Below the pieces are notes generated by a model, which saw only the letters and a program-made list of their open reading frames with translations, had not been told where the DNA came from and made no database searches. Made by a program: the position numbers and the translations under genes. A DNA stretch of 63,999 nucleotides, filler included, from Asterionella formosa (Eukaryota): assembly GCA_002256025.1 (NCBI GenBank). It is 13 parts of 13 records of this genome, joined end to end, with 100 filler letters (N's around TTAATTAATTAA, not from the genome) between each part and the next. Parts side by side here need not be neighbours in the genome. Positions count along the whole stretch, not along the records: positions 62,589 to 63,999 come from NKIB01002546.1; 12 more parts are not named here. One strand, 5' to 3'. Shown here piece by piece: positions 5,600-63,999 of the stretch (its first letter is position 1; the number at the start of each line of letters is the position of its first letter).

Positions 5600-5855
5600 C
5601 TTGCCGATTTCGGCAATCCCAGGGCTGGAAAACCGAGGGGCAATTGGCAAATGTTGTCTTGCCAAAATGCGAACATATGAAATATTCAAAATATATTTTA
5701 ATGATGGGCAATATCGGACCTTTGGCAATTTTCGAGGTGAAGATAGGAAATATTCGATATATACTTTATATAATGGGCTATAGTAAGCTAAAATTGATAT
5801 TTATGCTTAATTTGTGGGCAGTAGGTAAGCGAATGACGCGACAATAGCTAGAGCG

Positions 5856-6065: not shown

Positions 6066-6102
6066 TTGCCTACTGCAGCATCGTTGTCCCACCTGAAGTA
6101 TA

Positions 6103-6139
6103 GTACCAGGTACCAGGTACCAGGTACCAGGTACCAGGT
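6103..6139. repeat. (GTACCAG)n heptamer tandem, about 5 copies
   Basis: Direct reading: gtaccaggtaccaggtaccaggtaccaggtaccaggt. Confidence 0.95.
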
Positions 6140-6699
6140 TCTGATAACTGAGCATTCTTTCTCGAAATTTTTTTAACCTAGTTTGGGCTGTAGTGGACCA
6201 TTCATCCAAATTGATTCCAAGTATCGGTACTGGTAGTCAAGGCTTCTACATAAATACCGGTAGCGCTCATAAAAAATCACCTTTTGTCCATGATAAGTTC
6301 AACTCACCATAATGCGAGCTCCTCTCCCCGAAAATATCCTGATTGGGCAAGAAGACAAACTTTACACTCCCATCATCAGCCATGATGTGAAAAATGAGAA
6401 GTGCATTCCAGATGAATTCAGTCCACTAGACTTGATTCTCTCTATATTTTCAATCCATTGCCACTTGTTAAATTCATTGGATATTTCATTTTTGAAAAGT
6501 GAATCTATATCTACAGAACTGTAAGTTTCTGGAGGTGTGCATTGCATTAAGTGTCTAAGGCTAACAAAAATTTAGATGCATGAGGAGTCTGCTAAAAAAT
6601 ATCATCTCAAAAGTGTCTTTGCAAAATGGTGCAAAAATGAATATTGGCAATGGGCAAGGTGCTGTCATTTTATGCTTTTCCAAGTACAATCATCCATCA

Positions 6700-7400
6700 C
6701 TGTGGGTCTAAAATCATCATGTGAATATTGCGAAGGTTCACTAATTGAAAGAGTAACAGTGCTGCAGGGGAGCCCAAGAAAATCAGAGACAAAGAGGTGA
6801 TGGCCACACCTACTGGGCCTGTGGATGTTGCTGATACAATTGAGATGGATGCTCTCTAAACGCACATCAAGATTATTCCAAATTTGATATAGGCTACTAC
6901 CCTTACTATGGTGAAGTTGATAATATAATTATTGAGGCAGTAGAAGATAAAGGTATGCCTTCAGAGCTCCTCAAATTTGTAAAGAAACTTATGATACTGA
7001 CAATGTTGCCCTTGCAGCTGGATTTGTTGCTATTGATTATGACAATGCCCCAGCACCTGAAAATGTTCTTACCAATGAAGATGTGACAATTCTATTGATA
7101 GTAAAGAGTGAGAAATTCATGAATTTGCTACCAGAGACAGCTGAAGGCATCCTATATCATTCCAAGATTTTCATCATTTCCAATTCAGTTCAAGCTGGCT
7201 GTCTTGCAGTTGTTTGAATTATTTCCCCTTCTGTTTCTTGAAAGATAGCCATTTTTCATCATTAAACAAAAGATAGAGGGAATCCTGTGAGCCATGGTGA
7301 ATATGGATTACAGTTTTTAATGGCAACAACACAAGGAAAAAATTGGCACAATTTTTGGTCAGTTGCACCTACTAACAATTAAGCCTAAATCATCTCATAT
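6700..7400 (+). pseudogene. Degenerate piggyBac-like (DDE_Tnp_1_7-type) transposase, N-terminal part
   Basis: Frameshifted remnants AAGFVAIDYDNAPAPENV (~7013-7067), LQLFELF, and SHGE..GL.FLMATTQG...NFWS (~7290-7361). These resemble the DDDNxPAPEN / GxWFxMAT / DFWS motifs of stramenopile piggyBac-like transposases. Boundaries are approximate. Confidence 0.6.
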
Positions 7401-7886
7401 CTAGTGATTGATTTGATGACATTTTCAAGGAAGCAGTCTACACAAATTGGCCAGCACCTGGGTGTTCTGATTGCTTTCATGAAGTAGGGGAAATGATTGA
7501 AGAATGAATGATGACCTGTAGAGCAATTTTCAGCCAGCCAGAAATTGATGTCCATATGGACAATCATGCATACAAAAACCTTGCCCATTTGGAAATTAAT
7601 ACCACACAGTTTGTGTCCCTAATGACAAAGGTAGCCAATACTAGGTCATCCTTGTTTTGAAAAATTACTTTTCCCCTTGAATTGGATTCCAATACAAGGT
7701 ATTTTTGTTTCCTGTGTAACTACTCCAAATTAACTAATCATATGAATGGGGAATATATATAGGTGCTACAAGGTAAAATGACTAATACTTGTATTCCATG
7801 GGGGTGTCCTATGCCACACAATTCTTCTTTCCTTTGTTGCGTTGCACTAAAATGAAAGAACACCACAAAACATGCTTCAGACCCCC

Positions 7887-16800: not shown

Positions 16801-19800
16801 GTTACCGTCAACAGAATGCTCAATACTCAAAGCATCCTTGGCTTTGAGTAGATTCTCATGATCAAGATTTGCTTTCTTCATCTCGAAGCCAAACGTCGTA
16901 AGCAGCTCAACCGCGTCGACTGGCTTCATATTTCCACGGAGCGGCTTGTCTTGTTCCCACTTGCGTTGCAACACGACAACTCGTTTCGAGCAGGCTTTAT
17001 CTTCGGCAATAACGCGAGCCTGCAAAATCGGCATCTGCTGTCCCATCGTTCTGCCACGGCGATCAAGTATCTGTTCCATGTTTTCAAGCTGCCCAAGTAA
17101 TACACTAGTTTCCGTCCAATCTCCGCGAAAATGATGACGCTGTTGCTTCAGCAGTTTTTCGGATGCTATCAACTTCTCTACATCCTTGGTCCAAGGAGCT
17201 TGTTTTTGTTTTACTTCCTGAATAAAAGTGACCCCCAAAACGATATCATTTGTGTTCGAGGAACTTTCAAGGGAAACAGCCTCGAGTTTCGTCTTCGCAT
17301 CGGTAATCTTGTCATGCATATCAATGATATGTCGGGACAAGACCGATGCAAACGATAACTGTAGCTCCTTCTGCCATGAATCATACTTGAGGTTTATCTG
17401 GGATTGGACCTTATCGTACTTCACCGTAACTGGTCCAAACTCAGCGATTGTTGCAGATGAGTCCAACGTGGACCTTGCATAAGTTGCATCAATAAGTAAC
17501 GACTGCCATACATCGATATCATCTCCGACAGATGTGGACACATCGGATACCCGTGTGTCCCATAAAGTCTGATAAGAAAGCCACTGGTTAACAAAAACGT
17601 TCAAATTTTGAGTGTGCTGCTCCAACGTGGCATACGCGCTCGAGATTGTTTCGTTCTTGACAACATGAATCAAATTTTTGAATGTGTCCACTACTACTTC
17701 GTCGTCCGTTGTTTTGCCGGTTCTGTTGTCAAATACCTCAAAACGACCACTTCTAGGGCGAGGAAGTTGGCAAACCACTCCGATGAAGTCATGCAATGAC
17801 TTGAGAAGAAGCGATCGAACGATTGGCACGGCAGGGACTGCAGATATCTCTTGATTTCTCAGAAGGATCTCAACAAGAATAGGAGGAACATGGATTTTTG
17901 GGAGTGGAGGGGCAGCGCCAACGCCAAAGTCTGAGTCTTGGATTTGTTCTCTCCCCTCCTTTTCATCATCCATTTTATAGGTTAGGCACCAAGATTGAAG
18001 TGCTATTTCCAAGCGGTTGGCTAGGACCAACCCCATTCGATCGTCCACAACAGCCACCCATGACGCAAGATCAGCGTATCCGCTAAGCGACATTTCATCG
18101 ATTGCTTTCTGAATACTTCCCAAAATGCCCTCGAATTTCGCGGCATCGAAGTCGACGCGCTCTAGCAAGTTCAATGCAATATGGACCTTATCGCAGGCAC
18201 GGAGCAATTGCTCCACGCGCTCTTCAAACTTGGTCACTAAATCTGTCAGTGAGGCTACCCAGGTGACCATCTCCTTTGTATCCCAGCGTACGCGCCGCTT
18301 CTTTGCAATCGTGGTTGACTTGTCCAACTTCACGTCGAACGATTCAGAAATGCACTCTCGAATCGCCAATAGTTGTGGCATGACAAGCGGCTCGAGTTCC
18401 GGGGAAATCAGCGCTCGCACAGCTGCATATGACCTAAGAGCAGTTTTCAACGCAATAGCATGAGGGTATCTCGCCATCGCTTCGTCCGAGATCAACATCA
18501 ATGTTCTCGGGATATCACGCTCGTATCCTAACCATTTTAAGTGTCGGATTTCCCTGAAAAGCAGTTCCTGTTTCTCTTCGAAGTTAACCTTTGCAACAAG
18601 CGTACCCTGCCGACCTTCAGATTCGATTGTAATTGGGTAAGATTGAAGACGAGCATTCGCAGAAGTCAACTCCTTTTCCCACTCAGAGACCCAAGTCCGA
18701 AAATATGCCCTTGCATCAAGCTTACTAAGCAGCTCGTCACCACTGCGTCGCAGCTGTCGACCTTCCAATTGCTGACCCCAGTTCGGACCGAGAACATCAC
18801 CCATGCGCTGCATTAAAGTATGAACCTGGCGCTCCATCTGCTTCGCCCACAGAATCTTACCAGCAACTGGAGGGATTCCTCGAAGGCGGGAAATTCGAGC
18901 TGCAGGACTGGCTTCGTACTTGAGGGTAAACTTTGATTGCAATTGTTCTACTGCCTGTGTGACAGTTGCAATAAGTTGTATCTGGAATTCCTTGACAGCA
19001 GCTCGGACACGCGTTCGTGTCAACAAAGGATTGAAGCGGGCAAACACGCGGAACATATCTTCTGCATCTTTGCAGGAAGTCAACTTGTCACGAAGCAACT
19101 TCGCCAAACGTTCCTCCAATGCATCCATTTGGTGCTCATACTGTTCCAGAGCTTGTTCAAGGGCTGCAGAACCTCCAGGAGATAGATCCAGTACATCTAA
19201 AGAAGCAAAGATGTTGCGTGGGGCTGACTCGACTTCACGGATTGCAGAGCCATCTTCTTCTTCTAAAACTTCCTTCAAAACGACACGTAGCTTTTCATGA
19301 GACTGGCGGAATTCATGCAGAATATCCAGACGGTCTTTCAAAGTAGAGTGATAGAGGTTTAGACCATTTATGACCTGCAACGGTGTCTTCCCCGAAGCAA
19401 TACGTCGACGACGTCCTTGTTCGAGGAAAAATTCCTTGAACTCATCAAAGCGATCATCAAACTGAACAAAGACATCTTGCGATGGATAGCGAATAGAGGA
19501 TTCATACTCTCCATACTCCAAAAAGAGTATGTTTGGACCATCCTTTAGTACTCCTAGGATTCGACGCCTCAAAGTCAAGGTAGTCGCTTCCATCAACTTG
19601 GCACACCGCTCCAAATCATAGTACCGCGACGAACGAATCTTTGGCAAATGATCAAAGACAGCATTCACAGCAATCGACATCTTGTCCCAATCACGTGCCG
19701 CTTCCAACTGAGTAGCAGGATACTGACGTAGATAGTGAGCAATGTCTTGGGTATGTGAGAGAGCTTGCTCGAGGCCGGTGTTGTTGTCTAACGCAATTGT

Positions 19801-20775
19801 AGCCAGAAAACGTTTCGCTGCTTTCAACAAGTTCAGTGTTAGCTCAACATCCGGCCTTTTGAGCTCATTCGGGATACCTTTCAGTGACTCTTCAAGCTGC
19901 AACCAAAAGCTAACTTCCTCTAAGTCCGCTGCGTTGGAACTGTCAACAGAGGGAAAGGCAGTCGTTGTCGGCAAAACAGTTACCTTGCGAATCTGTACAA
20001 TCCACTGGCTCACTCCCGACTGGATTTCGTTCAAGAAGTTATCGTCATGGACCTTTTCACCCAAACCAAGGCCTTCCAGGTCGTTCAATGCTTTTCCAAG
20101 TTTTTCGGCTTCTTTGGCGGCCTTTTCAATGATAGGGTTGACCACCAAACGGACCTGAGGGATTTTACTCAACGCACTTCGTCGACACTGACCAAGGGCG
20201 ACATCAAGTTCACGGAGTTTATCCTCCAGCCCTACCAACAAACGACTTGAAGTTTCTTCTTCCTCTGTTGATAGAGACTGAACAGCAGGGACAAAACAAT
20301 GACGAGCAAACAACTGCAATGCTTCCAACGTAGAACCTGTTCCAGACACTCCCTGCTGAGCAGCGTTGTCCTCCTCAACATCGTCTTTCTTCTCCTCGTC
20401 CGGATAGGTTCGGGGCTGCAATGTCATGCATTGAAGCTGCTGACCTGACGAAGAGTGAAGAAATGCCAGCGCTCCAAGCGAATTACCTTCCAAACTACTT
20501 GTCGACGCTTTGGCAACTTCATCGTTGCGGCTAACCCACACGAACAACCTAGGGGCTAATTCAGTATCGCCTTCCGCCAAGAACGCATCGATCGCCTTCA
20601 GCCCTTCCTCCTCTGTTACAACTGCATCCAAATGGAGCTCACATGCCAACCTGGGTTCAATACCATTTTCGAAGCACAGTCAAATAAGATCATGGAGACG
20701 TGATGGAATCTAACGTTCAAGGTAAACTTACCGGATGTAGTCCTTCGGGGACTGCTGACGGCGATCCTTGCCCAT
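7887..20775 (-). CDS. DYNC1H1: Cytoplasmic dynein 1 heavy chain, about 4221 aa; exons 20775-20732, 20650-14110, 14031-13772, 13707-7887
   Basis: Four P-loops: GPAGTGKT, GPVGGGK|S, GPPGSGKT, GDSGAGKT. Stalk coiled coils and a cytoplasmic-type tail (MFRVFARFNPL, KILWAKQMERQ) are present. Three GT..AG introns (81, 78, 64 nt) restore one frame. Exon 1 (MGKDRRQQSPKDYIR) is inferred from splice signals. Confidence 0.96.
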
Positions 20776-23628: not shown

Positions 23629-25065
23629 ACTGTCCCCAGTTGGTACCAGGGCACCGCTCTCCTCCGTCCCCACTGCCAAGTCATCAATGAAGATGTTGAA
23701 CAGTATAGGCGAAAGAGGGCAACCCTGCCGCACACCTCGCAACAGTCTGCAGGGGTCCGAGTACAGGGCAGTCAAGCCACCCCCCACTCGTACCCTGATT
23801 GTACTGCTGCGATAAAGGGCACGTAGAAAAGCAAGGCAACGTCCCCTGATCCCAAACCTGGATAGTTTCGCAAAGAGCGCCTCGTGGGGCACCGTATCAT
23901 ATGCCTTCTTGAGGTCTACGAATACCACGTAGGTCGGCTCTCCCACTATCCTCCGGCGTTGTATGATTTCCATGACACAGGCTACCTGGGTTACACATTC
24001 CTCTCTCTGGCGAAAGCCAGCCTGGGCTCGGCTAAACAGCCCTCGAGATTCCGCTTCCACATTTATCCTGGTACCAAGGATCACACACACCACCTTGAGG
24101 ACAGTGGCCATGAGCGAAATCCCCCGATAGTTGTTCATATCAGCCAAGTCCCCTTTCTTAGGTATTGAGACGACCAGTGACTCAGCCCACGACTGGGCCA
24201 CCAGTCCCCTCTCATACGCAAAGTTGAGTAGGGTTCCTAGTGAGTCCGTCATTGGAGCGGATGGTGGCGGGGCGGGCTCCTCTTCCCGATAGTTTTGAAG
24301 GTGGGAAAGTAGGGCCCGTTCCTCCGCCAAACATGCCTGTAGCAGTTCAGTGGGTATCCCGTCACCGCCCGGAGCACGATGGCTCTTCATCTTCCTCAGG
24401 GCAGTCCAAATATCGGAGGTTGTGAAGGGTTCGTCCAGCGAACGGATCCCCTCATTTGCCTGTGGGTGCGGGTCAAATTTCTCCCAATATTGGGCCTCCT
24501 GGCTATGACCGGTTTCATCTGCTGCTAGAGAGGCATAGTGCGCTCCCCAGGCCTGATGAATATCAGTCAAAGCTGTCAGCAGGCGTCCGTCCGGGCCAAG
24601 GACCGGTTGGACACCTGCGATGCTGCTCTTCTGGCGCCATCCTGCAGTCGCTGAGGCCCACCGCCAATAGTGGCGAGGTTTCTCGCGCATATTGACGTGA
24701 GCCTCCCTAATTGCCTTATACCATGCCCGCCTACCCGAGAGGCGGATCACCTTCCGCGCCCTCTCTTTGGCAGCCTTGTACATGTCCCCAAGCCGTGCTA
24801 CATCTTCACGGTCTCCTCGCGACTCCGCCCTCCGGGTTTCCCGGAAGATCCTCCTTCGGGTCTCAATCGCCCGACGTACCTGTCCTGTCACTCTTGGTGG
24901 GGTTAGTCCCGCCACCCGTTGGTGGAGGTTCAGGTCCTCTGCCACCTGGTGACATGTTGTAGTGAACTTCTTGGCCATACCATCCAACCTTTCCTGGTGG
25001 TAACTGGTGGGGTTTTCGAGTGAATGTGAACACTCGATTACATCCTCCAGGTCCTCCTCCAGCGA
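23629..25065 (-). mobile_element. Non-LTR (LINE) retrotransposon reverse transcriptase fragment
   Basis: RT motifs RAPGGDGIPTE, IPKKGD...NYRGISL, QAGFR, FVDLKKAYDTVPH, GVRQGCPLSPILFNIFIDDL. Noticeably GC-richer than the rest of the window. Probable frameshift or stop near 25040. Confidence 0.93.
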
Positions 25066-48774: not shown

Positions 48775-50211
48775 GCATTCTGGTGGTACCATTGGACTTG
48801 GGAAACAGCGAGGAAGGTTGTATCCCGACGTATCAAACAGTTTCGAATAAGAGGAGTTGGAACGAAGAGATGTGACAAGAACTGACCTGACACTTCTGTC
48901 CGACTTGGTCGATGGATGTCTCCCACCTATTTGTGACTTCCTGCGCAACACAACAAAACTTGCCACAACGACGAATCAAACGGGTTTCGAATATGAGGAG
49001 TGGTTGGAACGAAGAGACTTGTCATAAACATGACACTTTTGTCCGACTCGGTCGATGGAGCAAAAGAAACGACACCAGCGTCCGGTTATTTGCAAATGGC
49101 TGTACTTGATTAAAAACAAATAACCATTTTGATAGTAACTATTTATGAGTAAATAAAAATTCTTACTTCCATCTTTCCCCATAGGAATCAAGCAAAAACG
49201 CATTCGTCTCACAGTAGCCGAAAAGGAGCGTATCTTTCTGGACGCGCTTCAGTCCTACGATGCCACTGGAAGGCAAATGCTCAAGGATGACGAGTTTGAC
49301 CTATTGAAGGAAGATTTGCAATGGAACGGATCTGAACATATATATAGCTAAAAAAAGGAAAGACGACACGACAATGAACGTGATGGCTGGTTGTTGAGGA
49401 TACCGGTATGTGATATGCATCAATCCATATCAAAAATCATATTATAGTGATGTACATATCAACGCATCCGTATACTTAGATCCTATCCACTGTATAATAC
49501 TATCATATTAACTGTTGACTTTAACTGTATACTTTCTTAAACGACAGACATATATATTAATTAACATACTTTATGATTGCTTGATTTATTTTCTATGATT
49601 TCTTGGTAACACTTGCTTGCATACATATTTTATTGTATTTTTTTGTCATTGTATTAGTTTTACATGATCATATTTTGATCAAAATTTTATCATAAACATT
49701 TTATAAAATCATCATAATTTTAGGATCAATGTATCATAGCTCTGTGATATTTTTTATTCAATATTACGTATCATACTTCGGTGATGTATGCATCGATGTA
49801 ACCTTATCATGATATCACAGTATCATCTTATCAATCATGATGAGATGATTGGGAAGCAACTGTATTCTGCATCGTGCTACAGGGTATATTATTATATCAC
49901 GCAATTTAGTAGCGAAGTCACTCCGCCTGTAATGTACTAAAGTCGACAGTGCACATTCCGGGTACCAGTACTCAAACGCTAATCAGGTTTGAGGCAAAGG
50001 ACAGTGGTTCGAACGAGCGAATGATGATACGGTACCAATTTTTCCAACGAAAGAACTTGTCTCTCTATTGATGAGGATGACACGGACACGGACACGGACA
50101 CCGACTTTTTCAGGAGCAAACAACAATGAAGAGACCCACTTGTCGCTCTATTGATGGTAAAAAAGATGCAGACAAGTTCAACAGTGAATACAAAGAACAA
50201 CATACCATTGA
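48775..50211 (+). mobile_element. Mosaic gene-fragment-carrying repeat, copy A
   Basis: Highly similar to 63300-63999 and to 50312-51230. Confidence 0.85.
49185..49336 (+). pseudogene. PGRL1: Captured PGRL1-like exon fragment with internal 52-nt deletion
   Basis: IRLTVAEKERIFLDALQSYDATGRQMLKDDEFDLLKEDLQWNGSE. Confidence 0.8.
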
Positions 50212-50311
50212 NNNNNNNNNNNNNNNNNNNNNNNNNNNNNNNNNNNNNNNNNNNNTTAATTAATTAANNNNNNNNNNNNNNNNNNNNNNNNNNNNNNNNN
50301 NNNNNNNNNNN

Positions 50312-51747
50312 GACGAGTTTGACCTATTGAAGGAAGATTTGCAATGGAACGGATCTGAGCATATATATAGCTAAAACAAGGAAAGACGACATGACAATTA
50401 ACGTGATGGCTGGTTGTTGAGGATAGCGGTATGTGATATGCATCAATCCATATCACAAATCATATTATAGTGATGTACATATCAACGCATCCGTATACTT
50501 AGATCCTATCCACTGTATAATACTATCATATTAACTGTTGACTTTAACTGTATACATTAAACGACAAACACATATATTAATTAACATACTTTATGATTGC
50601 TTGATTTATATTCTGTGATGTATCGATAACACTTGCGTACATATTTTATCGTATTTTATTGTCATTGTACTATTTTTACATGATAATATTTTGATCAAAA
50701 TTATATCATATATATTTCATAAAATCATCATAATTTTATGATCAATGTATCATAGCTATGTGATGTACTTTATTCAATATTACGTATCATACTTTGGTGA
50801 TGTATGTATCGATGTAACCTTATCATGATATCACAGTATCATCTTATCAATCATGATGAGATGATTGGGAAGCAATTGTATTCTGCATCGTGCTACAGGG
50901 TATATTATTATATCACGCAATTTAGTAGCGAAGTCACTCCGCCTGTAATGTACTAAAGTCGACAGTGCACATACCGGGTACCGGTACTCAAACGCTAATC
51001 AGGTTTGAGGCAACGGACAGTGGTTCGAACGAGCAAATGATGATACGGTACCAATTTTTCCAACGAAAGAACTTGTCTCTCTATTGATGAGGATGACGCG
51101 GACACGGACACGGACACCGACTTTTCCAGGAGCAAACAACAATGAAGAGACCCACTTGTCGCTCTATTGATGGTAACAAAGATGCGGACAAGCAAGTTCA
51201 ACAGTGAATACAAGAACAACATACCATTGAAAACAAGTCGACAGTGTGTGCACGCACACGCCAAGCAAGTTTGAGGCAACGGACAATTCCAACAAGCAAA
51301 TGACGATACTGATATCAAATTCTTCCTACGAGCAAACAAAAATGAAAAGAGCCACTTGCTTTCGCTCTCTTGCTTGTTGGTATCAAAGATGCGGACAAGT
51401 TCAATACTTAATTCAAGTACAGTATGCCAAATGCAGAAACGAGCAAGCGATATGAAAATGAAATGCGTTCTAATCAGAATCATTCTATAACTATAGCTAT
51501 GTGGACAGTAGTCTGTTACGCACATTTTCGTATCTCCTTCTATGCTGAATCTCAATAGTAGATGTAGTATCATGTGAGAATTGAAAATGTCAACGAGAAC
51601 AAGTACCGGTAGAATGTGTCTGTTTACGGGTTGATTGGCGAGATTGTCATGCTGAAGTGGACGAAACGGATATACTTTGTGCGCAAAATCGGAAGTTGGT
51701 AGGGTTTATAATGTCGTTTATTTCTCCGTTCTGAATGATTGGACCAT
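50312..51747 (+). mobile_element. Mosaic repeat, copy B (downstream part), with internal diverged duplication of ~50960-51230 at ~51237-51430
   Basis: Starts inside the PGRL1 fragment (DEFDLLKEDLQWNGSE) and is colinear with 49288-50211. Confidence 0.85.
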
Positions 51748-51847
51748 NNNNNNNNNNNNNNNNNNNNNNNNNNNNNNNNNNNNNNNNNNNNTTAATTAAT
51801 TAANNNNNNNNNNNNNNNNNNNNNNNNNNNNNNNNNNNNNNNNNNNN

Positions 51848-52630
51848 AACCGTTTGAAATGGCGGGATACAACCTTCCTCGCTGTTTCCCAAGTCCAATG
51901 GTACCACCAGAATGCAGCAAAGTTTTCTTCCCATTCATGATCCTTGGGACTTCGTCATGTTGTGGCGTTCTACCGTTGCAACGCACGATAATGGGTGATG
52001 TACCAAATTTTTCCGGTATACCGGTAATAGAGGGGGGCGGGGGGCATCGCTTTGACTTTCACAGCCTCTCTACAGAGCTGCGACAGAAAATAATAGGGAA
52101 AAACATAGTACCACCATAACCGTAGGTGCTACTTAAAGGTGCTGATAAAAGATGTAAACGTTCTACCTGGTACCGGTAGTAACTCGTCAGCCTGGCTAAT
52201 TATCGCGCCAGTTAAATTCATAAAAGCAATATTATGATAACTACCGGGTAGGTATGCCAGAACATATGGTTTTCTGTTGCTCGCTTATTACTCCGACTAT
52301 TGGTTTTTAGTTTTACAATCATACAATCCTAGAACTATGATGATTTATTGTGCCACAGTAGTAGCAACAGTCCTGAATATATGGTATTCCATTGGTTTTT
52401 GGTTTTACGATCATACGATCCTAAAATTATGATAATTTACTGTCCCGCTGCAATAGCAGCAGTCATAGACATTTCGTGTTCTATTGGTTTTTAGTTTTAC
52501 GATCATACAATCCTAAAACTATGATGATTTACTGTCCCACTGCAGTAGCAACAGTCCTGAACATATGGTGTTCTGTTGCTAGTTTTCTACTCCGACTACC
52601 CCCAGTATATCAGTTACTACCTGCTACTGG
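51848..52630 (-). mobile_element. Mosaic repeat, copy C (upstream part, inverted)
   Basis: Reverse complement is colinear with 62589-63368. Confidence 0.85.
52297..52575. repeat. About 92-bp tandem repeat x3; also at about 62640-62925 on the opposite strand
   Basis: ATTGGTTTT recurs at 52299, 52391 and 52483, with the whole unit conserved. Confidence 0.9.
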
Positions 52631-53155
52631 TACCCTGTATATATATGATACATTGTTATTGTCATATGATGTCCCGGTACACATGAAGAGCTCCCGCCCA
52701 AAAAAGGGGCTTGAACAATTTGCTACCAAAACCCTTGCGGCATTTGAACGGTCTAAATAATTAGTTTCAACGGACGTAGAAAATATCGATGCAAACAAAT
52801 TTCAGAGATAATACCGGTACACGTACCGGTAGTCGTGAAAAAATGGAGGACTCTGGAAAAGGATGTGATGTCTGACGTGACAGTTGGCACGCAGTCGGAA
52901 ATGTCAACAGCCAATGAGAGCGAAGGTCGAAGAATCTAAGCCCAACAGATTTTTAAAACGGCTCAGGACCAACATACCTTAATATTTTTAAGGTCGATTC
53001 TTTTTTAACAAACCTGCAAGGCTCTAATGATGAAGAAATGCCGGAACTTTGATTGTCAAACACGACTCATATCTGAGGTTGCATGCCACAGGAAGAATGA
53101 ACGATGATTTCCATCACCCACAGAATCTCCTGCTTGAATTCAAAGAATCATCTAT

Positions 53156-53282
53156 ATGAGGATTTTTTCCCTTTCTCTCCTTCTTGTTTTGCCTTGCATT
53201 GCTGAAGGCGGCTTCAACAAGACTGTGCCTGGAAGTCGTCCTAAACATGACAAACCTCTATCAGCAAAGAAGGGAACTGGAG
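53156..53282 (+). CDS. Possible 5' end of a secreted protein gene, truncated by contig end
   Basis: MRIFSLSLLLVLPCIAEG looks like a signal peptide; only 42 codons are visible. Confidence 0.4.
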
Positions 53283-53382
53283 NNNNNNNNNNNNNNNNNN
53301 NNNNNNNNNNNNNNNNNNNNNNNNNNTTAATTAATTAANNNNNNNNNNNNNNNNNNNNNNNNNNNNNNNNNNNNNNNNNNNN

Positions 53383-54817
53383 ATACACGGTCCCTTTATT
53401 GGAGAAGTTGAAGAAGGCGTGACACAGTCAGGATTGATTACCAACATGTTCGCGGCACCCATTTTTCGGCATGAACCGGAGTCGTCAGACTTTTTAATGA
53501 TCCTCGGCCGTAAGCCTATCACCGCCTCACGAAGTACAGGTCTACTTCAACAGATGAGCGTTGTGTTGCGTCCAATGCCGGCAAGTGTATTTTGCGTGGG
53601 TCAAGTGGAGCCGAGAGAACGAGGCATGGTGCATGCTCCTCAAACATCCGGCGAACGAACATTTACTGCGATATTTTTGTCGTATCTTATTGCGAAGACG
53701 ATAACGTGGTATGAACGGAATGAAAACAGAGGTTTGCGCTTCGATGAAATTAGCGATTTATTTCACCATACCGGCATTCAAGCAAATGCACTTCGGCAGC
53801 GCATCAAATCTGTGGCGCATTATGACAAGAATTCACAAATTTGGGACTCAAAACCAATAACAGATTATGATGATTATCCGGGAGTTGAAGCCTTAGGGCG
53901 AAAGGTGGCACCTGAAGGGGTCGCTTGTTACGAAATGGCGTGTGCTACGGCCCGTCGCTTGTGTGACATCGGGCTCACTATTCTATATTCAGGGTCTAAT
54001 AATGTGACGACAGTTGGGGCTGCTATTGCATACTTGACCGGGGATTTGAATTCTTCCCGTGACATCTCGCGTAAATTAAAAAAAATGCTGGAGTTTGCCA
54101 GGTCATCGAAAACCTCAACGCAAGCGCAAATAGCTTTCTATGAGAAGGCGGCTGAAAAGCTGGACGAGCACTGGAAGGATATCCGGCGAAAGCACGAAGT
54201 GGCAAGGTTCATTTATGAAGAGCTTCAACTAGCTTCTTGGAACTTGACATTTGAGTTTATTGACGTTCACAAGCTTGGACATGGTACCGGCATGATGAAA
54301 TTGACTGGAATAGGGGATCCTTCTGGTCTTGGCGAAGCATATAACTATATTCGTGAAGTTGACACCAAGCCTCATAAGGTTTCTGCTGCTGCTAACGATG
54401 GTGCGCTAAATGCTCAAATCAAGAAAATTACAGGAACTGACAATGATTTGCGTAAGCTTACCATGAAGCAAATGGCTAGTCTGCTTCGGTCATACGGCAT
54501 GGCTCAAAAAGACATCGACAGGCTTAAGCGTTGGGATCGTGTACACGTTATTCGTGATTTGTCAACGAAAGCAGCAAGTGATGGTATGGGCGATGGACTG
54601 GAACGTTTCGCTCGTGGCGAAAAGCTTAAGCTAAGTGAACAGAAACAAATGTATCGGGACCGTATCCAAGAGATTTGGCGTCGTCAACGCAGCGCTTTGT
54701 CAACAGATGTTGGTGATTTACGAACAGTTGGGCAAGAAGGAAGTATTGTGACTGGTGATGTCGAGAGCAAAGTTGGAGATCCTGCTGAGAATGTTTCTCC
54801 TCAAAAGAAGTCAAAAG
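53383..54817 (+). CDS. TAF1: TFIID subunit 1, central DUF3591 region (partial)
   Basis: NMFAAPIFRH...DFLMI, GIGDPSGLGEAYNYIR, TGTDNDLRKLTMKQ...LKRWDRVHVIR. Frame is open across the whole contig. Confidence 0.92.
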
Positions 54818-54917
54818 NNNNNNNNNNNNNNNNNNNNNNNNNNNNNNNNNNNNNNNNNNNNTTAATTAATTAANNNNNNNNNNNNNNNNNNNNNNNNNNN
54901 NNNNNNNNNNNNNNNNN

Positions 54918-55782
54918 ATCCCGTGTTAAAATAGCGGTGATATCCAACCTGTAATTATCCTGTAAATAACAAAAGTTATTCAGGTAATGATTGACGTAAG
55001 ACATATTCAATGTGCTGTCGCTCATAAATATATATATATATGTATATTATTAAAATCATAGCATTGTTGCTATTGTCGCACATAATTCTGTTAAGGCGAT
55101 ATGTTCAGCATTCTGCTGGTTTTTTATTAGGCACATCGGCCACTAACTGACCAACAGGAGGGTTCATGACCACTAAAATGTCCTCGTCTACCAAAACTGG
55201 AACGGCCATATCCATTATGACGACCAGTCATGTGACCTGCTCGACCACCTTGAGTACGAGGATTCTGGAAACAATTGATGTTAATATATCCTTAGAAGTA
55301 AAACAGGAAACCGGAATTGGGCCCTGATATGTATATGGAACATCATGTCCATCAATGCAGTTATATATATCCCGCGTAACATTAACCGCGGTATTCATAG
55401 TGTATTCAACCTGTAAATAAACAATATTATTCAGGTGATGACTAACGTGAGATATACTCAACGAGTCATTATAAATAGCATCGCTATTATCGCACATACC
55501 TCTGTAATGGCGATCAGCAATCTGCTGTTGTATAGTAGGGACAAAAGTCACTATCTGGCCAGCAGGAGGGTTCGTGACCACTGAAATTTCCTGGGCAGAT
55601 GTATTCTCGGTAGGATCGGCACGTGGCACGGTACCCCAACCGGATGGACGAGTATTATGACTCCATGTATTTAACATACGAGCATGTGGAACAGGCACAG
55701 GATTCCGAACAGGAACAAGGTTAGTAGTGTTAGTAATGTTAACTCCATGAATCTTATGTTTGACCGTTGTTTCATATCCCAT
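54918..55782 (-). pseudogene. Degenerate unknown coding sequence with a diverged ~450-bp internal repeat
   Basis: 55371-55462 resembles 54920-55011, and EISVVTNPPAGQIV resembles DILVVMNPPVGQLV. Confidence 0.45.
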
Positions 55783-56994
55783 GCGTGGCCGGCTGCACTA
55801 AAATGCATGTGCCCTGCCATCACCACTGAGTATAAAATTATCATGTACAAATTTACGCTTGAAATGGAGTTTGTATTCTTGATACATCACAGGACTGCAT
55901 TTAGCAATGCGAAGACGATCTTTTGTTAAAATTGACACCAGTCACGCTTATTTTCTTGATGCGTCATGGAATTGTCTTCAACTTCAACTATTTATTTACG
56001 ATTTTGTGTTAGAAAATCGACACCAGGCATGCGCGTTCTCTCGACATAACACGATTGCCTTCAACAAGCGATGCGAAGTCGATTTCGGCTTATGGTAGAA
56101 CTCATGCTTGAGGATGTGCTCGAGTTGATCTTTTAATGATTGTTGACTCTCGAAGTAAGTCAAAACCAAGCAAATCAATTATTTTGTGTTCTTTTCATTG
56201 TTCCATTCAAACATTTGTTGCCACGCATTGTTGATCAAGTAAAATGACAATCAACCTCAAATCTTCCTTGGCGGAAACCTCTTGATCTTCTGGATGAGTT
56301 ATCATGAGTTTTAGGAGCTTCTTTAAGGTCTTGAGACAGGCAGCAAAGTCGANNNNNNNNNNNNNNNNNNNNNNNNNNNNNNNNNNNNNNNNNNNNTTAA
56401 TTAATTAANNNNNNNNNNNNNNNNNNNNNNNNNNNNNNNNNNNNNNNNNNNNGTCTGGTATTGTTGAGATGATGACATTTGAACTGTGACTCTTTATGAA
56501 TAGAGTCTTCAACCACGAAGAACAACTGTTTGGGTTTCCTTGGCTCTTCGAAAGCAATCTTTCCTTCTTTTCAATCTCTGCCACTATTGTATCGGCATAA
56601 TTGCTTCATTTTTCTTCTTGAGTATTATGAATCTGTTCAAATTCATTTGTTATTTGAGTGTATTCAAAGGAATCTTCGATTGATTTCATAAGTTTCTTCA
56701 TCTTCTTTTCCGAAAACATTAAATCGTGTAGTGTAAACAATGGAAGTAAGTCAGGTTTCTTGTTTGACTGATCCTTTGCATGAATTCCATGAAATGCCAT
56801 TTGGAAAGTTGTCAAAGGGCCAGAAGACTATGATGTAAAACAGTGGAAGGGAAACTCGGAGCTTTTTGCGGCGCTTGTGGAGGTGCAGCTGGTGTGATGG
56901 TAACCGAGTGTAGTAATTGTTGAACAGAGCACAGCAGTGTAATATGCATGTTCCGCCAGCTTAGTGTTTACACAATACACATGCTGGCATAAAT

Positions 56995-57152
56995 ACAGCT
57001 ATAACAAGGAAAAACGACATGACAATGAATGTGATGGCTGGTTGTTGAGGATACCGGTATGTGATATGCATCAATATATTTCACAAATCATATAATAGTG
57101 ATGTACATATCACTGCATCCGTATACTTAGATCCTATCCACCATATAATACA
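56995..57152 (+). repeat. Mosaic repeat fragment (segment just downstream of the PGRL1 piece)
   Basis: Matches 49345-49500. Confidence 0.85.
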
Positions 57153-57986
57153 GTCAGTATATCACTTGATGATGTAGTGATATATATAAGAGATTGAGTC
57201 TTAAATGGAAGGTAATGAAAAGTAGAAATTTCCAGAAGATTACAGATTGTAGAAGGATCCAAGGTTGTGTAGAACTTAAGTGACAAACTGTGTGAAAGGT
57301 CAAGAAGAGTGAATCTTGTAGGGATTTAGGGTGGTGGATCTTGTAGGGATCCAAGGTGGTGGATCTTGTAGGGATCCAAGGTTGGTGAAAGAAAGGAATG
57401 AATGTAAGTTTGGTTGACAAAACTGATGTTTTCAATTATATGAGCTTAATTCTATTTGGCAAAATGAGGAAGGTGAGGAAGTGCCAGAAGCAACTAATGA
57501 AGTGCTGGCATCATGGAATGAGTACTGAATCTACAGAATCCTAAGGGAAAGGTAGAGAAGTGCCAGTAGCAAGATCAGAGGTGCTGACAGTAAGCTGTGT
57601 ATGAATGTACAGCCTGGTACCATAGACCTGCCTACTTGGTACCAGCAGCATTGTGCTGGTGCTGTTATACCAGTACTACTATGCATAAAACCTGGTAGCA
57701 TGACTAAATTCCCGCCGGAAGTATCATCATGGTACCTGGTGCCTGGTACTAGGTACCACAGAACCATTTTCTGGTGTCCGGTACTAGGTACTACCGGGTA
57801 CCAGGTACAAAACCTGGTACTGCTAAGCATCACTAAATTCCTGCCGGCAGCTGGTGTGCAAACCAGTAGTACCTGGTAGTAAAGTGNNNNNNNNNNNNNN
57901 NNNNNNNNNNNNNNNNNNNNNNNNNNNNNNTTAATTAATTAANNNNNNNNNNNNNNNNNNNNNNNNNNNNNNNNNNNNNNNNNNNN

Positions 57987-58458
57987 GAGGCATTAGTTGA
58001 AGTAGCCTGTTTAAAGTTTTAATACGAGCTCCGTAATCCATTACCAACATGGAAAAGGGTTTAGATAAATAACGTAGCATCCATTGTCGTTGATGTTGAA
58101 AACTCTCATTTGGTAAACGATCGTCTAACCATAAAGCCATCGCTTCTTCGAAACTATCGTAAGATTGATCTTCTGGGTGTACTTCCACATTCAACCAATC
58201 CGATAAGGCAATGTCTGTCAAACACCTTTTAAAATAGGAAAAGGTATCTGCAGGGCTAAAGTCACATGTGTTAGCCATATCACGAAATTGACTCACTCCA
58301 ATTAACAATGCTTCCACTGAGCTTCCATCGATCATATCTTGATCAAACGATTCAAACCTTCCACCGGTTAAAGCAACTCTGAACGTTTTAGTTTTGATAG
58401 TCAATACATTGTAGTCTTTGATCAAAGGAATCACAGGAACCCTTGAATACATTGCCAT
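57987..58458 (-). mobile_element. Ty3/Gypsy-type gag-like ORF, truncated
   Basis: F..FKRCL...A..DW and QRQWM...LSKPFSM.V..Y.ARI..LN..L..MP resemble the KPxxMxVxxFxxRxxxLNxxL motif of stramenopile Gypsy gags. Confidence 0.6.
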
Positions 58459-59115
58459 GTTTGTTGTCTTCTAATTCGACTCTTTTTGAATTCAAAGTGA
58501 AGTATCTAACTAGAAGTAGTAGTATTTGTTGAATATATGAGCTTATTAATTAATCCTTATGTATAACTCATTTCCTGAACTGACATCAAAGTATAGAATG
58601 GGTGTTAGTCGAGTTCTCTCATTATTGAATTCCGATATATTTGACATAACCCCAACTCTATATATATCTGTATCGATGTGCAGGATTGCTCACAAGGTAC
58701 CCTGGTACCTACGCACAGTGTACTTTCCTCGTGCTTACTATCTGGATAAAAGGGACTTCCTGATGGTACCAGGTAGTAGGAGACCGAAGTAACTTCGACA
58801 CAATTACCGTCTTGTCCATTTCGTCTTTCTCCATATTTAGTCTGTGTTGTAGCTTCGTAGATACATCGCTGGAATATATGAAAGCGATCCATAGAATAAT
58901 AGAATAATGAGCCAGGAATACATCTAAGCCGCGTATTACGTGAAGTGACCATCACGTAAATAAGCCTAGTTGATTTTGAATGCATCACATGAATTAGTTG
59001 AATACATCAAAATACGTAGTTGAACATGTCTATATATTATCTGAATACATCACGTTAAATATTTGATCAAAGTATCATGCATGCATTCCTGATCATCACT
59101 ATATTATGTGATCAC

Positions 59116-59215
59116 CTTCACATAATTATTTGAAATACTTCACATAATTATTTGAAATACTTCACATAATTATTTGAAATACTTCACATAATTATTTGAA
59201 ATCCTTCACGTAATT
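59116..59215. repeat. 22-bp minisatellite (CTTCACATAATTATTTGAAATA), about 4.5 copies
   Basis: Direct reading. Confidence 0.95.
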
Positions 59216-59521
59216 CTGTAATTTCGTTCACATAATTGTAGAATAAAGTTCACTTAATATGTTAAATTTGTTTACGTAATTTTCTGGAGCTCATTCAACT
59301 AAATTGAAGAGTTTCATTAATGAAATAAAGCCTGCTCATTCGGAACGGCATGCGAATGCTCCTGCACTGAAAGGGTTTGCTGCAATGTCAATTGAATGTA
59401 GAGGAAGATCAGTGTGAGTTNNNNNNNNNNNNNNNNNNNNNNNNNNNNNNNNNNNNNNNNNNNNTTAATTAATTAANNNNNNNNNNNNNNNNNNNNNNNN
59501 NNNNNNNNNNNNNNNNNNNNA

Positions 59522-59957
59522 CATACAGAATATTCTGGTGAATGTGATCATGTTGGTGGTGATCATCAAGTTTGTATTTGGTTTTGGGAGGTTGTTGGTG
59601 AATTTGATCGGGAAACCAAGGCGCGATTGTTGCAATTTGTGACAGGGACCAGTGGTGTTCCAAGTCGAGGATTCGGAGGTTTGCAAGGAAATGATGGGAA
59701 TATTCGGAAATTTACCATTCATGGAGTAGGAGTTGATGTTTGTCTTTATCCTCGAGCTCAGTAAGTCTCTCATGTATTGTTGTTGCACTCGCCTTGCTGA
59801 ATGAGTGTACCTTTTGCTCACCTCTCTCTCCCCTTTCTACTGCTGCAGCACTAGTTTCAATCGAATTGATTTACCAATGTATGAGACACGACAGGATTTG
59901 AAGGAGAAGTTGAAGTTGGCAGTCCCTATGGCTTCCACTGGGTTTGATATTGAATAG
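59522..59957 (+). pseudogene. HECT E3 ligase (NEDD4-like) C-terminus with catalytic Cys replaced by Ser; exons ..59760 and 59849-59957
   Basis: WFWEVV..FD.E.KARLLQFVTGTSGVP..GF..LQG, LYPRAH|TSFNRIDLP.Y, GFDIE*. GT..AG intron 59761-59848. Confidence 0.85.
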
Positions 59958-61055
59958 GTCGTATGGCTGATGGAGGACAAGGATGTTTCAGCATGTCTTT
60001 AGGAACCTTGGTACACATAAAACCAACAATGCCTGTTTGGTAGCAGTGGTTTTGAAATGGTTCATTAGTTTTCAGTATGGTTAATATCTAGAAGATTGTA
60101 AAGTTTCTAAATGTAAACCTGTGTGTCAGAATGTGTCTGTCAGGCTGTTGATGTTGACAGGTGTCCGAAGACTAGATGTAGTAGGAATTGGAATATACGG
60201 GTATGCTATCACAGCATCAGCAGTTGGTTGCGTTTTGTTAAATACAGGCAATGTCTTGTATTATGACAGAAAGTATTCAATTCCTGGTAAAGGGCGGGAG
60301 GAGTTCACTCACTACGAGCCATGATTGTATCCTTTGGTGTTGGTAGTAGCATATCAAACCTTCTTTTGGGAGGAAGACATACTTGCCACAAGGAATTACT
60401 TTTTGAAAGTCTGGCTGTGCCAGCCATAGAACAACAAATGACACTTGTGGTCGGATTTTTCAATTTCTTGTGATCAAGCACTGTTCAATCAATGCAAATG
60501 TTACATTTTCGAAGAGATTTTCGGCATTGAAGAAATGCAATCTCATTGAAACTTTTCTTCAAAAGAGTACCTTTCCCTTACTAATAGATACCCATCCCTC
60601 CAATGTGTTGCCAGAAATCATGAAAAAAATGGAATTAATGTTTCCCGAAACTCCAATTTTTCTGTACTAATTGATCTGATCTGGAAGTGTGGTGACCATA
60701 GTGTGTTGTGTGGTGTTCAGGTACATATTTCCAAACACCACAATGTACTGAAAAAGTTTGCAGAAATGTGTAAAAAGGCGAGATGGCTTGAAAAATTCAA
60801 AAAGATTTATTTGCTATATTCAAGTCCTGAACAATGTGCAGCTAATTCCGTTCAATGCCTTAGTATTCCTAAAACACAGGGACAACAAATCACAGTTGTT
60901 ACACTAGTATATCATGCAAAAGCAGTATACCCTGTCTCAGCCAAGTCTCTGCAANNNNNNNNNNNNNNNNNNNNNNNNNNNNNNNNNNNNNNNNNNNNTT
61001 AATTAATTAANNNNNNNNNNNNNNNNNNNNNNNNNNNNNNNNNNNNNNNNNNNNA

Positions 61056-61491
61056 CATACAGAATATTCTGGTGAATGTGATCATGTTGGTGGTGATCAT
61101 CAAGTTTGTATTTGGTTTTGGGAGGTTGTTGCTGAATTTGATCGCGAAACCAAGGCGCGATTGTTGCAATTTGTGACAGGGACCAGTGGTGTTCCAAGTC
61201 GAGGATTCGGAGGTTTGCAAGGAAATGATGGGAATATTCGGAAATTTACCATTCATGGAGTAGGAGTTGATGTCTGTCTTTATCCTCGAGCTCAGTAAGT
61301 CTCTCATGTATTGTTGTTGCACTTGCCTTGCTGAATGAGTGTACCTTTTGCTCACCTCTCTCTCCCCTTTCTACTGCTGTAGCACTAGTTTCAATCGAAT
61401 TGATTTACCAATGTATGAGACACGACAGGATTTGAAGGAGAAGTTGAAGTTGGCAGTCCCTATGGCTTCCACTGGGTTTGATATTGAATAG
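61056..61491 (+). pseudogene. Second near-identical HECT C-terminus (Cys to Ser); intron 61295-61382
   Basis: Contig 61055-62488 duplicates 59521-60954 with about 7 visible substitutions. Confidence 0.85.
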
Positions 61492-62588
61492 GTCGTATGG
61501 CTGATGGAGGACAAGGATGTTTCAGCATGTCTTTAGGAACCTTGGTACACATAAAACCAACAATGCCTGTTTGGTAGCAGTGGCTTTGAAATGGTTCATT
61601 AGTTTTCAGTATGGTTAATATCTAGAAGATTGTAAAGTTTCTAAATGTATACCTGTGTGTCAGAATGTGTCTGTCAGGCTGTTGATGTTGACAGGTGTCC
61701 GAAGACTAGATGTAGTAGGAATTGGAATATACGGGTATGCTATCACAGCATCAGCAGTTGGTTGCGTTTTGTTAAATACAGGCAATGTCTTGTATTATGA
61801 CAGAAAGTATTCAATTCCTGGTAAAGGGCGGGAGGAGTTCACTCACTACGAGCCATGATTGTATCCTTTGGTGTTGGTAGTAGCATATCAAACCTTCTTT
61901 TGGGAGGAAGACATACTTGCCACAAGGAATTACTTTTTGAAAGTCTGGCTGTGCCAGCCATAGAACAACAAATGACACTTGTGGTCGGATTTTTCAATTT
62001 CTTGTGATCAAGCACTGTTCAATCAATGCAAATGTTACATTTTCGAAGAGATTTTCGGCATTGAAGAAATGCAATCTCATTGAAACTTTTCTTCAAAAGA
62101 GTACCTTTCCCTTACTAATAGATACCCATCCCTCCAATGTGTTGCCAGAAATCATGAAAAAAATGGAATTAATGTTTCCCGAAACTCCAATTTTTCTGTA
62201 CTAATTGATCTGATCTGGAAGTGTGGTGACCATAGTGTGTTGTGTGGTGTTCAGGTACATATTTCCAAACACCACAATGTACTGAAAAAGTTTGCAGAAA
62301 TGTGTAAAAAGGCGAGATGGCTTGAAAAATTCAAAAAGATTTATTTGCTATATTCAAGTCCTGAACAATGTGCAGCTAATTCCGTTCAATGCCTTAGTAT
62401 TCCTAAAACACAGGGACAACAAATCACAGTTGTTACACTAGTATATCATGCAAAAGCAGTATACCCTGTCTCAGCCAAGTCTCTGCAANNNNNNNNNNNN
62501 NNNNNNNNNNNNNNNNNNNNNNNNNNNNNNNNTTAATTAATTAANNNNNNNNNNNNNNNNNNNNNNNNNNNNNNNNNNNNNNNNNNNN

Positions 62589-63999
62589 GTAGCAGGTAGT
62601 AAGTGATATACTGGGGGTAGTCGGAGTAGTAAACTAGCAACAGAACACCATATGTTCAGGACTGTTGCTACTGCAGTGGGACAGTAAATCATCATAGTTT
62701 TAGGATCGTATGATCGTAAAACTAAAAACCAATAGAACACGAAATGTCTATGACTGCTGCTATTGCAGCGGGACAGTAAATCATCATAATTTTAGGATCG
62801 TACGATCGTAAAGCTAAAAACCAATAGAACACCATATATTCAGGACTGTTGCTACTGCAGTGGGACAGTAAATCATCATAGTTTTAGGATCGTATGATCG
62901 TAAAACTAAAAACCAAAAGAACACCATATGTAGGACCAGGCTGACGAGTTACTACCGGTACCAGGTAGTACGTCTACATCTTTTGTCAGCACCTTTAAGT
63001 AGCACCTACGGTTATGGTGGTACTATGTTTTCCCTATTATTTTCTGTCGCAGCTCTGTAGAGGCTGCGATGTACGGTTATGGTGGTACTATGTTTTCCCT
63101 ATTATTTTCTGTCGCAGCCCTGTGGAGAGGCTGTGAAAGTCAAAGCGCTGGAATCTATTATACCGGAAAAATTTGGTACATCACCCATTATCGTGCATTG
63201 CAACGGCCCGCGACAGGGTGGCTGTGGTTATGGAGCAGGGGGTAGAACGCCACAACATGACGAAGTCCCAAGGATCATGAATGGGAAGAAAACTTTGCTG
63301 CATTCTGGTGGTACCATTGGACTTGGGAAACAGCGAGGAAGGTTGTATCCTGCCGTATCAAACGGTTTCGAATAAGAGGAGTTGGAACGAAGAGATGTGA
63401 CAAGAACTGACCTGACACTTCTGTCCGACTTGGTCGATGGATGTCTCCCGCCTATTTGTGACTTCCTGCGCAACAAAACTTGCCACAACGACGAATCAAA
63501 CGGTTTCGAATATGAGGAGTGGTTGGAACGAAGAGACTTGTCATACACATGACACTTCTGTCCGACGCGGTCGATGGAGCAAAAGAAACGACACCAGCGT
63601 CCGGTTATTTGCAAATGGCTGTACTTGATTAAAAACAAATAACCATTTTGTTAGTAACTATTTATGAGTAAATAAAAATTCTTACTTCCGTCTTTCCCCA
63701 TAGGAATCAAGCAAAAACGAAACTAGTCCTGATGAGGAATACTGTGTTGTCGATCCGGAAATTGGGGAACTCATTCGTCTCACCGTAGCCGAAAAGGAGT
63801 GTATCTTTCTGGATGCGCTTCAGTCCTACGATGCCACTGGAATGCAAATGCTCAAGGATGACGAGTTTGACCTATTGAAGGAAGATTTGCAATGGAACGG
63901 ATCTGAGCATATATATAGCTAAAACAAGGAAAGACGACACAACAATGAACGTGATGGCTGGTTGTTGAGGATACCGGTATGTGATATGCATCAATCCAT
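62589..63999 (+). mobile_element. Mosaic gene-fragment-carrying repeat, copy D
   Basis: Contains the 92-bp tandem, a duplicated acceptor-like segment (63007-63066 / 63073-63133), gene-like pieces and the fullest PGRL1 fragment. Confidence 0.85.
63704..63907 (+). pseudogene. PGRL1: Captured PGRL1-like exon fragment preceded by an intron acceptor
   Basis: ttccccatag|ESSKNETSPDEEYCVVDPEIGELIRLTVAEKECIFLDALQSYDATGMQMLKDDEFDLLKEDLQWNGSE. This matches the PGRL1 pattern YC...E.E..FL.ALQS.Y..G......EFD.LKE.L.W.GS. Confidence 0.85.

Follow-up and report, generated by a model that had tools for sequence, protein, structure and literature searches.

We analyzed a stretch of 63,999 nucleotides from the diatom Asterionella formosa (assembly GCA_002256025.1; hereafter, the window), focusing on a short segment close to its end that resembles PGRL1, a gene of photosynthetic cyclic electron flow. 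The window is made up of 13 contigs, two of 23.5 kb and eleven of 1,411-1,437 bp, chained by N44-12mer-N44 spacers, and thus is not one chromosome stretch. On the last contig (c62589), four features follow each other on the plus strand: 3.2 copies of a 92-bp tandem repeat (62638-62931), a module that we denote U (62936-63727), the PGRL1-derived fragment (63728-63906), and the start of a 165-bp module (63907-63999) that is truncated by the window end. Pieces of the same repeat family are held by 5 of the 11 contigs of ~1.4 kb, and the parts of the repeat unit in hand sum to at least about 3.4 kb. Related sequences were sought in metagenome contigs by a scan with the PGRL1-like protein P0002, which yielded 80 loci, 5 of which (L043, L072, L078, L079, and L080) share the repeat at 93-99% DNA identity.

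The PGRL1-derived fragment and its copies

An open frame of 72 codons at 63704-63922 matched diatom PGRL1 proteins well above chance level: 62 of 95 candidate proteins reached E ≤ 0.001, with P0002 as the best match (E 2.3e-32, 85% identity), and one of the matching proteins, P0029, carries the name 'PGR5-like protein 1A [Seminavis robusta]'. A further protein search returned 243 representatives at E ≤ 0.001. Pfam provided no match for the fragment, nor for the transcript-derived full-length PGRL1 protein P0222, so that the assignment rests on the named and unnamed homologs. When delimited by tblastn with P0222, the numbering of which is used throughout, the PGRL1-derived part comprises 179 bp, that is, 59 codons (P86-S144) and 2 nt of D145. 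The initial annotation had described a PGRL1-like segment of 68 codons; the homology was borne out, and the first 8 of these codons (63704-63727) turned out to belong to U and not to be derived from PGRL1.

The fragment recurs on two other contigs of the window, in agreement with the initial annotation, all three contigs being separated by N spacers. The second copy (49201-49336, plus strand; contig c48775) spans I101-S144 and has the substitution Y120D in common with the first one, and the third copy, located at the edge of contig c50312 (50312-50358, plus strand), consists of the last 47 nt of the fragment and shows 0 differences from L072 over this length. The copy on c62589 is 95.6% identical at the DNA level to positions 186-365 of L072, with 8 differences in 180 positions, 4 synonymous and 4 nonsynonymous; overall, the copies are 95.6-100% identical to the nearest PGRL1 coding sequence over 47-180 bp. 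In comparisons of the contigs themselves, c62589 and c48775 are 89.5% identical over 706 columns, a 52-bp deletion included, c62589 and c50312 are 97.1% identical over 140 bp, at which point c50312 stops at its contig end, and c48775 and c50312 are 94.3% identical over 927 bp. The repeat copies within the window hence diverge by 3-10%.

In place of a complete PGRL1 coding sequence of about 330 residues, the copy on c62589 encodes residues 86-144 only, and its frame runs into a stop 5 codons past the downstream junction. The features that we take to be those of PGRL1 and that are seen in P0222, namely, the targeting peptide, both membrane helices, and the C-terminal cysteine/CxxC pairs, are missing from the fragment. 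Sister copies are disabled as well. L043, which has the same U junction and a PGRL1 part that extends further, at least as far as residue 262, contains W141stop, R151stop, and an 11-bp deletion; P0125 is the frameshifted reading of a copy and ends in the same downstream module; and P0080 is a copy with a 16-residue deletion. Truncation and disabling, as expected of a processed pseudogene, are thus evident from the window copy, which is cut on both sides, and from the stops, frameshift, and deletions of its sisters. Judged by these sequence features, the PGRL1-like segment is real and non-functional. Separately, an 871-bp RNA contig from sequencing run X15 matches the PGRL1 part of L043 from position 970 on and has >255 nt of unrelated sequence before it; it represents either another rearranged PGRL1-derived copy or a chimeric transcript.

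Junctions and modules of the repeat unit

Module U matches positions 2668-3421 of L078, which separate the minus-strand genes A and B there, at 95.8-98.4% identity, and contains a 65-bp duplication (63007-63133) and two internal repeats of ~90 bp (63354-63441 and 63492-63578). The minus strand of its tail codes for ...LVSFLLDSYGER(W/R)K-stop, the C-terminus of the 457-residue gene B protein (P0235; L078:3366-4277, minus strand). This remnant of gene B, its last 14 codons and the stop, occupies 63682-63726 on the minus strand as an open reading frame (ORF) ending ...LVSFLLDSYGERRK; the C-terminus of P0234 and P0235 reads ...LVSFLLDSYGERWK, the same as the tail of U on the minus strand. P0242, a homolog 32% identical to the gene B protein, aligns over 100% of the query, this C-terminus included.

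The switch from U to PGRL1 occurs at ...CTAGT|CCTGA... (63727|63728), that is, at codon P86. A polypyrimidine tract followed by AG is indeed present where the initial annotation had let the PGRL1-like segment begin, and had been taken for the splice acceptor of a captured exon. The second copy of U in L078 (L078b), however, runs past ...CTAGT into gene B rather than PGRL1, so that the 24 nt after the AG belong to U. The tract therefore lies 24 nt upstream of the true junction, and the alignments identify it as the antisense of the last codons of gene B, which is unrelated to PGRL1. Moreover, L072, the protein of which is 100% identical to P0222 over residues 38-150, aligns straight on through the point at which the repeat copies switch from U to PGRL1, the gene model P0059 is likewise continuous through the 5' start point of the fragment, and the 49 contigs of run X1 that leave the repeat at L043 position 714 agree fully (1.0) on the native coding sequence upstream. 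These comparisons place the 5' end of the fragment inside PGRL1 exon 1, in conflict with the capture of an exon together with its splice acceptor.

The same junction region can be followed in other contigs. On c48775, U (48775-49200, plus strand; 98.8% identity to L078 2975-3400) ends at the 52-bp deletion, which took 8 nt from the end of U and 44 nt from the start of the PGRL1 fragment, junction included; the resulting joint ('706 to 759, skips 52') is also present in run X1. The left part of U is found on a fourth contig, c51848 (51848-52258, minus strand; 88.8% identity to L078 3042-2605 and 99% to L072 2900-2710), where it lies beside a 92-bp array in reverse orientation to that upstream of U on c62589 (52297-52578) and 655 bp without a match elsewhere in the window.

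At the 3' side, PGRL1 homology stops at 63906 (...GGATCTGA, two bases into D145), and the abrupt end in other sequence that had been annotated initially is the start of the 165-bp module. This module directly follows the fragment in c48775, c50312, and L079, and its copies at 49337-49500, 50359-50523, and 56987-57151 are 90-98% identical. The last of these (plus strand, contig c56453) occurs by itself in unrelated surroundings, which shows that the PGRL1 fragment meets a module border at its 3' end. The downstream part of the repeat unit, in which the 165-bp module is followed by AT-rich sequence (49337-50211, plus strand), is 94% identical to 50359-51230, and c50312 continues after the third fragment copy with the downstream module and a further 1.2 kb (50359-51747). 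A minus-strand ORF of 236 codons in this region (50998-51705) was considered as a gene and set aside, for it contains internal repeats, belongs to no family, and looks non-coding. U and the PGRL1 piece of c62589 have diverged equally from their counterparts (95.8% vs. 95.6% identity), as expected if the two were amplified together.

Origin of the fragment and amplification of the unit

The fragment is uninterrupted across the junction of parental exons 1 and 2, Q117|S118 (63823|63824), and every repeat-borne copy, in the window and in L043, L072, L078, L079, and L080, is continuous there too. In the loci of relatives, by contrast, the PGRL1 match is split at residue 117/118 (...LDALQ|SYY...) in 16 of the 28 listed. 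When 12 loci were read base by base, GT directly followed the Q117 codon in 11 and AG was found at the opposite boundary in 8. Among genomic gene models, the closest one, P0059 (7.3-kb contig), is identical to P0222 at 114 of residues 1-117, signal peptide included, and its match to P0222 stops exactly at Q117. An intron at this place is likewise implied by the protein P0218, which starts only at M126. Because the fragment crosses this junction without an intron, it most likely derives from spliced PGRL1 mRNA, as far as its sequence can tell, and not from DNA-level capture of an exon with intron sequence, as had been proposed initially. A break in L072 after N150 (AAT|GT...) was also considered as a native intron, with L043 as a copy spliced there. 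Neither P0218, which belongs to the same 90% cluster as P0059, nor any of the relatives' loci is interrupted at N150|R151, and the break is a rearrangement point.

The repeat is widespread and far more abundant than could be told from the window, in strong support of the multicopy nature ascribed to it in the initial annotation: it is shared by five independent metagenome loci, part of c62589 is present in 20 of the 24 listed runs, from 18 studies, and the data sets in which it was found are freshwater, riverine, estuarine, marine, and sediment. Six of the listed rows are RNA libraries, with 28-45% of the words of the stretch. Contigs of runs X1, X4, X15, and X20 were aligned on L043 at ≥88% likeness (60,755 contigs from X1). 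In X1, labeled "DNA?" by a guess, the summed word depth reached 1.1-3.1 million across U and the fragment and 0.26-0.78 million over the longer PGRL1 part; in X4, with the same guessed label, the respective values were 104,000-484,000 and 7,000-169,000. In the RNA run X15, depth was 1,000-9,300 over U and the fragment and mostly 15-33 over the longer PGRL1 part, rising to 400 at the end; the roughly 100-fold excess of U and the fragment over the rest of the PGRL1 message is compatible with transcription and is no proof of it. For comparison, the one X1 contig in which the c48775 deletion joint occurs reaches a depth of 1,174, which puts the family on the order of 10^3 copies if this variant represents one or few copies. 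Only 28 positions in 1,333 bp vary at ≥10%, which indicates a small number of major subfamilies. One X15 RNA contig spans the border of the fragment with the downstream module, a hint of transcription, although RNA libraries can contain DNA.

Taken together, these observations make it probable that the fragment is a truncated processed PGRL1 pseudogene, derived from a spliced message and carried as a passenger in a patchwork unit that was amplified as DNA in the nuclear genome of the diatom. Under this scenario, the PGRL1 message would have been spliced and then reverse-transcribed into DNA; the PGRL1 piece would have been welded at its 5' side to U (the region downstream of gene B along with the antisense of its last 14 codons) and at its 3' side to the 165-bp module; and the patchwork unit of at least 3.4 kb would then have been amplified as DNA to a very high copy number, either in a satellite-like tandem array or through a non-autonomous mobile element. 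For the amplification step only, a DNA-capturing transposon with ends outside the sequence in hand is possible.

Several points weigh against this scenario. The parental intron is deduced from a 97%-identical gene model and from relatives rather than from the organism's own PGRL1 locus. The relative's locus L025 (64% identity, 3,971-bp contig) gives a single uninterrupted match over residues 56-330, and the multi-kilobase loci L032, L033, and L040 also give one high-scoring segment pair each; a native PGRL1 without the Q117 intron is thus conceivable, and its copying at the DNA level would leave an identical picture. Every copy in hand ends before the 3' untranslated region, short of the place where a poly(A) tract or a target-site duplication would be expected: the L043 copy stops at its contig end, and in the window copies another module takes over at S144. 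With 4 synonymous and 4 nonsynonymous differences, the window copy neither demonstrates nor excludes constraint. Run X1, which contains 94% of the words of c62589, is probably the window's own source and so not independent, and its DNA label is a guess. Finally, the copy number on the order of 10^3 that the summed contig depth suggests is rough, and contig depth is not a copy number.

The alternatives differ mainly in how the unit was assembled and multiplied. In the ~3.4 kb of the unit in hand, we found no terminal inverted repeat, long terminal repeat, primer-binding site, poly(A), transposase, or reverse transcriptase/gag remnant; the 29 ORFs of the family's contigs matched no Pfam family and no transposase-like domain; and an inverted-repeat scan of these contigs, which hold no complete unit, revealed 18 inverted pairs, none of them terminal. 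It is against this background unlikely that a retroelement took up part of the PGRL1 message by template switching and spread by repeated retrotransposition rather than by amplification at the DNA level. Such an element would account for the intron-less fragment, reverse transcriptase genes do occur in the genome (RVT_1 in contig 23629-25065), and both the presence of the repeat in six RNA libraries and the X15 RNA contig that joins the fragment to the downstream module (loose end at position 893) would fit an RNA intermediate. However, these libraries can contain DNA; the hallmarks of a retroelement are missing from the roughly 3.4 kb available; U is ordinary intergenic DNA joined to the antisense end of a host gene; and X20, a poly(A) RNA run from the same sample as X4, covers part of U only, at a depth of at most 791 against about 250,000 in X4, and leaves the fragment uncovered.

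We consider rather improbable the explanation put forward in the initial annotation, namely, that a non-autonomous transposon of the Pack-MULE/Pack-TIR or Helitron type captured a genomic PGRL1 piece at the DNA level and then transposed. The patchwork of unrelated pieces (the antisense 3' end of gene B, PGRL1, the 165-bp module, and the 92-bp array) is typical of fragment-capturing transposons, the copy number is high, and an intron-less parent is conceivable given the relative without the Q117 intron (L025). Yet the fragment contains neither intron sequence nor a splice site of PGRL1 and spans a junction at which 16 relatives' loci and P0059 are interrupted. The end of U, ...CTAG followed by T, resembles a Helitron terminus but falls inside the coding sequence of gene B, with no hairpin before it as judged by eye, and the family's contigs and ORFs offer neither terminal inverted repeats nor a transposase-like domain. 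In addition, the 21 of 154 loose ends that were listed all have a consensus (agreement 0.84-1.0), which points to few fixed junction types within the 1.3 kb examined and not to many insertion flanks.

A bolder proposal, in our view quite improbable, holds that a transcribed, possibly amplifying repeat with RNA-derived PGRL1 in thousands of copies produces sense and antisense RNA, from which small RNAs or chromatin marks arise and influence the genuine PGRL1 gene and, through it, cyclic electron flow, or, alternatively, that a circularized 3.3-kb extrachromosomal amplicon re-entered the genome; a regulatory effect on PGRL1 is speculation. Least probable is a tandem exon duplication inside a working PGRL1, or a short-read assembly artefact, with no independent repeat family: the periodic arrangement of ~3.33 kb in L078 would suit it, and all the evidence stems from short-read contigs with an identical core of about 180 bp, so that junction combinations could be chimeric, but the same junction pair is found on two window contigs and independently on L079, the depth of the fragment equals that of U and is orders of magnitude above that of single-variant contigs, neither neighbor of the fragment is PGRL1, and the window copies differ by 3-10%. 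The outcome that would have refuted the initial annotation was not observed: a PGRL1 match exists, and the copies are not a duplication of the native locus with intact flanking exons.

Returning to the passenger pseudogene, loci L072, L078, and L080 suggest how its junction with U may have come about. In all three, the order within about 4 kb is a PGRL1 retro-fragment (A38-N150, without the Q117 intron), gene A, U, and gene B; the retro-fragment and U are 2.3 kb apart in a segment of ~3.3 kb. L078 starts with the tail of U joined to P86 and then is 99.8% identical to L072 for 2.7 kb, and the U tail recurs in it with a period of about 3.33 kb. A tandem duplication or circularization from P86 to 14 codons inside gene B would yield the U|P86 junction of all the high-copy copies, and we infer that this junction arose by such a local event in the ~3.3-kb segment. 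Speaking against it, the U|PGRL1 start of L078 lies only 73 bp from the contig end and could be a chimera of short-read assembly, which is conceivable because the core is identical to that of L079 for about 120 bp. Outside U and the PGRL1 piece, sensitive blastn and tblastx comparisons of the window-type unit with the gene A region and gene B detected no similarity. The remainder of the unit is therefore not that locus in decayed form, and additional rearrangement must have taken place. No circle or tandem unit could be built from the window contigs; the sole recurrence downstream is a 22-nt motif of the 92-bp array.

The two genes flanking U belong to no family in Pfam. Gene A is a multi-exon gene on the minus strand (L072:580-2600; ORF pieces P0231, P0233, and P0232), resembles no known family, is nearly identical in L078 and L080, and is absent from the window. 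Gene B has few homologs, none of them named, and its 90% cluster comprises 116 member sequences. A protein language-model look-up linked it to 2OG-Fe(II) oxygenase-like clusters (score 0.93, only 132 shared features), a weak lead, and an H-x-D ... H pattern is visible by eye in its protein. Viral contigs contained nothing for an exact 30-mer of U and nothing for the gene B query. Another rearranged PGRL1 sequence is represented by the transcript-type protein P0224 (322 aa; with P0058), which has an intact PGRL1 frame from A38 to the stop and an N-terminus corresponding to the sequence just downstream of the A38-N150 fragment in L072 (L072:399-500). This circular permutation suggests either tandem copies of a retro-fragment unit of ~485 bp or an expressed retrocopy without the targeting peptide.

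Neighboring contigs and comparison with known systems

The large contigs of the window encode ordinary eukaryotic nuclear genes, including those for a dynein heavy chain, an HA-domain protein, an RRM protein, Bud13, and a class-3 lipase. The dynein heavy chain (7890-20679, minus strand) consists of two giant uninterrupted ORFs of 1,949 and 2,323 codons, which fits an intron-poor genome; such a protein would also suit a diatom making flagellated gametes. Among the short contigs, two of 1,434 bp (59521-60954 and 61055-62488) are 99.5% identical end to end and may be haplotigs or a very recent duplicate; one ORF of this pair was searched and belongs to no protein family. The 1,437-bp contig at 23629-25065 has a G+C content of 56.8%, compared with 35-46% in the others, and is a single open minus-strand frame of 479 codons with the reverse transcriptase domain RVT_1 (E 2.5e-22), representing either a retroelement or DNA of another organism in the sample. 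The contig at 53383-54816 is filled by an open frame of 478 codons with a DUF3591 domain (E 1.3e-39), presumably the TAF1-type domain. An Rfam scan of 48775-63999 detected no family above threshold; a miRNA-like match at 57730-57803, whose 31.7 bits fall short of the gathering score of 89, was taken as a chance hit.

If correct, the passenger pseudogene would be a clean case, in a diatom, of a host gene message whose DNA copy was multiplied within a patchwork repeat. A limited full-text literature search turned up no report of such a case in diatoms, which is not proof of absence. In practical terms, reads from thousands of almost identical PGRL1-like pieces can inflate the PGRL1 counts of diatom metatranscriptomes and metagenomes or otherwise distort them, and repeat-borne pieces are already listed as predicted 'proteins' in public collections (P0058, P0080, and P0125). 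Conversely, because the repeat is detectable across many aquatic and sediment data sets, it could serve as a sensitive marker of this diatom lineage.

The unit shares features with several known systems and coincides with none of them. Relative to the parent PGRL1, the fragment spans only residues 86-144 of 330. Pack-MULEs, Helitrons, and CACTA elements are similar in being amplified patchworks of host gene pieces, with passengers that are often mutually antisense; however, they carry genomic DNA with introns and have defined ends (terminal inverted repeats with target-site duplications, or TC...CTRR with a hairpin), whereas the piece described here is intron-less and the available sequence has no such ends. 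Long-monomer satellites likewise combine very high depth, few variants, and internal short tandem arrays, and the related locus with its 3.33-kb period adds to the resemblance; satellites are arrayed head to tail, an arrangement into which the contigs of the window-type unit could not be joined. With processed pseudogenes, the fragment has in common the absent parental intron, the 5' truncation inside an exon, the loss of function, and the stops and frameshifts of its sisters. Such pseudogenes, however, are found as one or a few dispersed copies, whereas the PGRL1 fragment is present in roughly thousands of copies inside a larger unit, with its 3' part replaced by another module.

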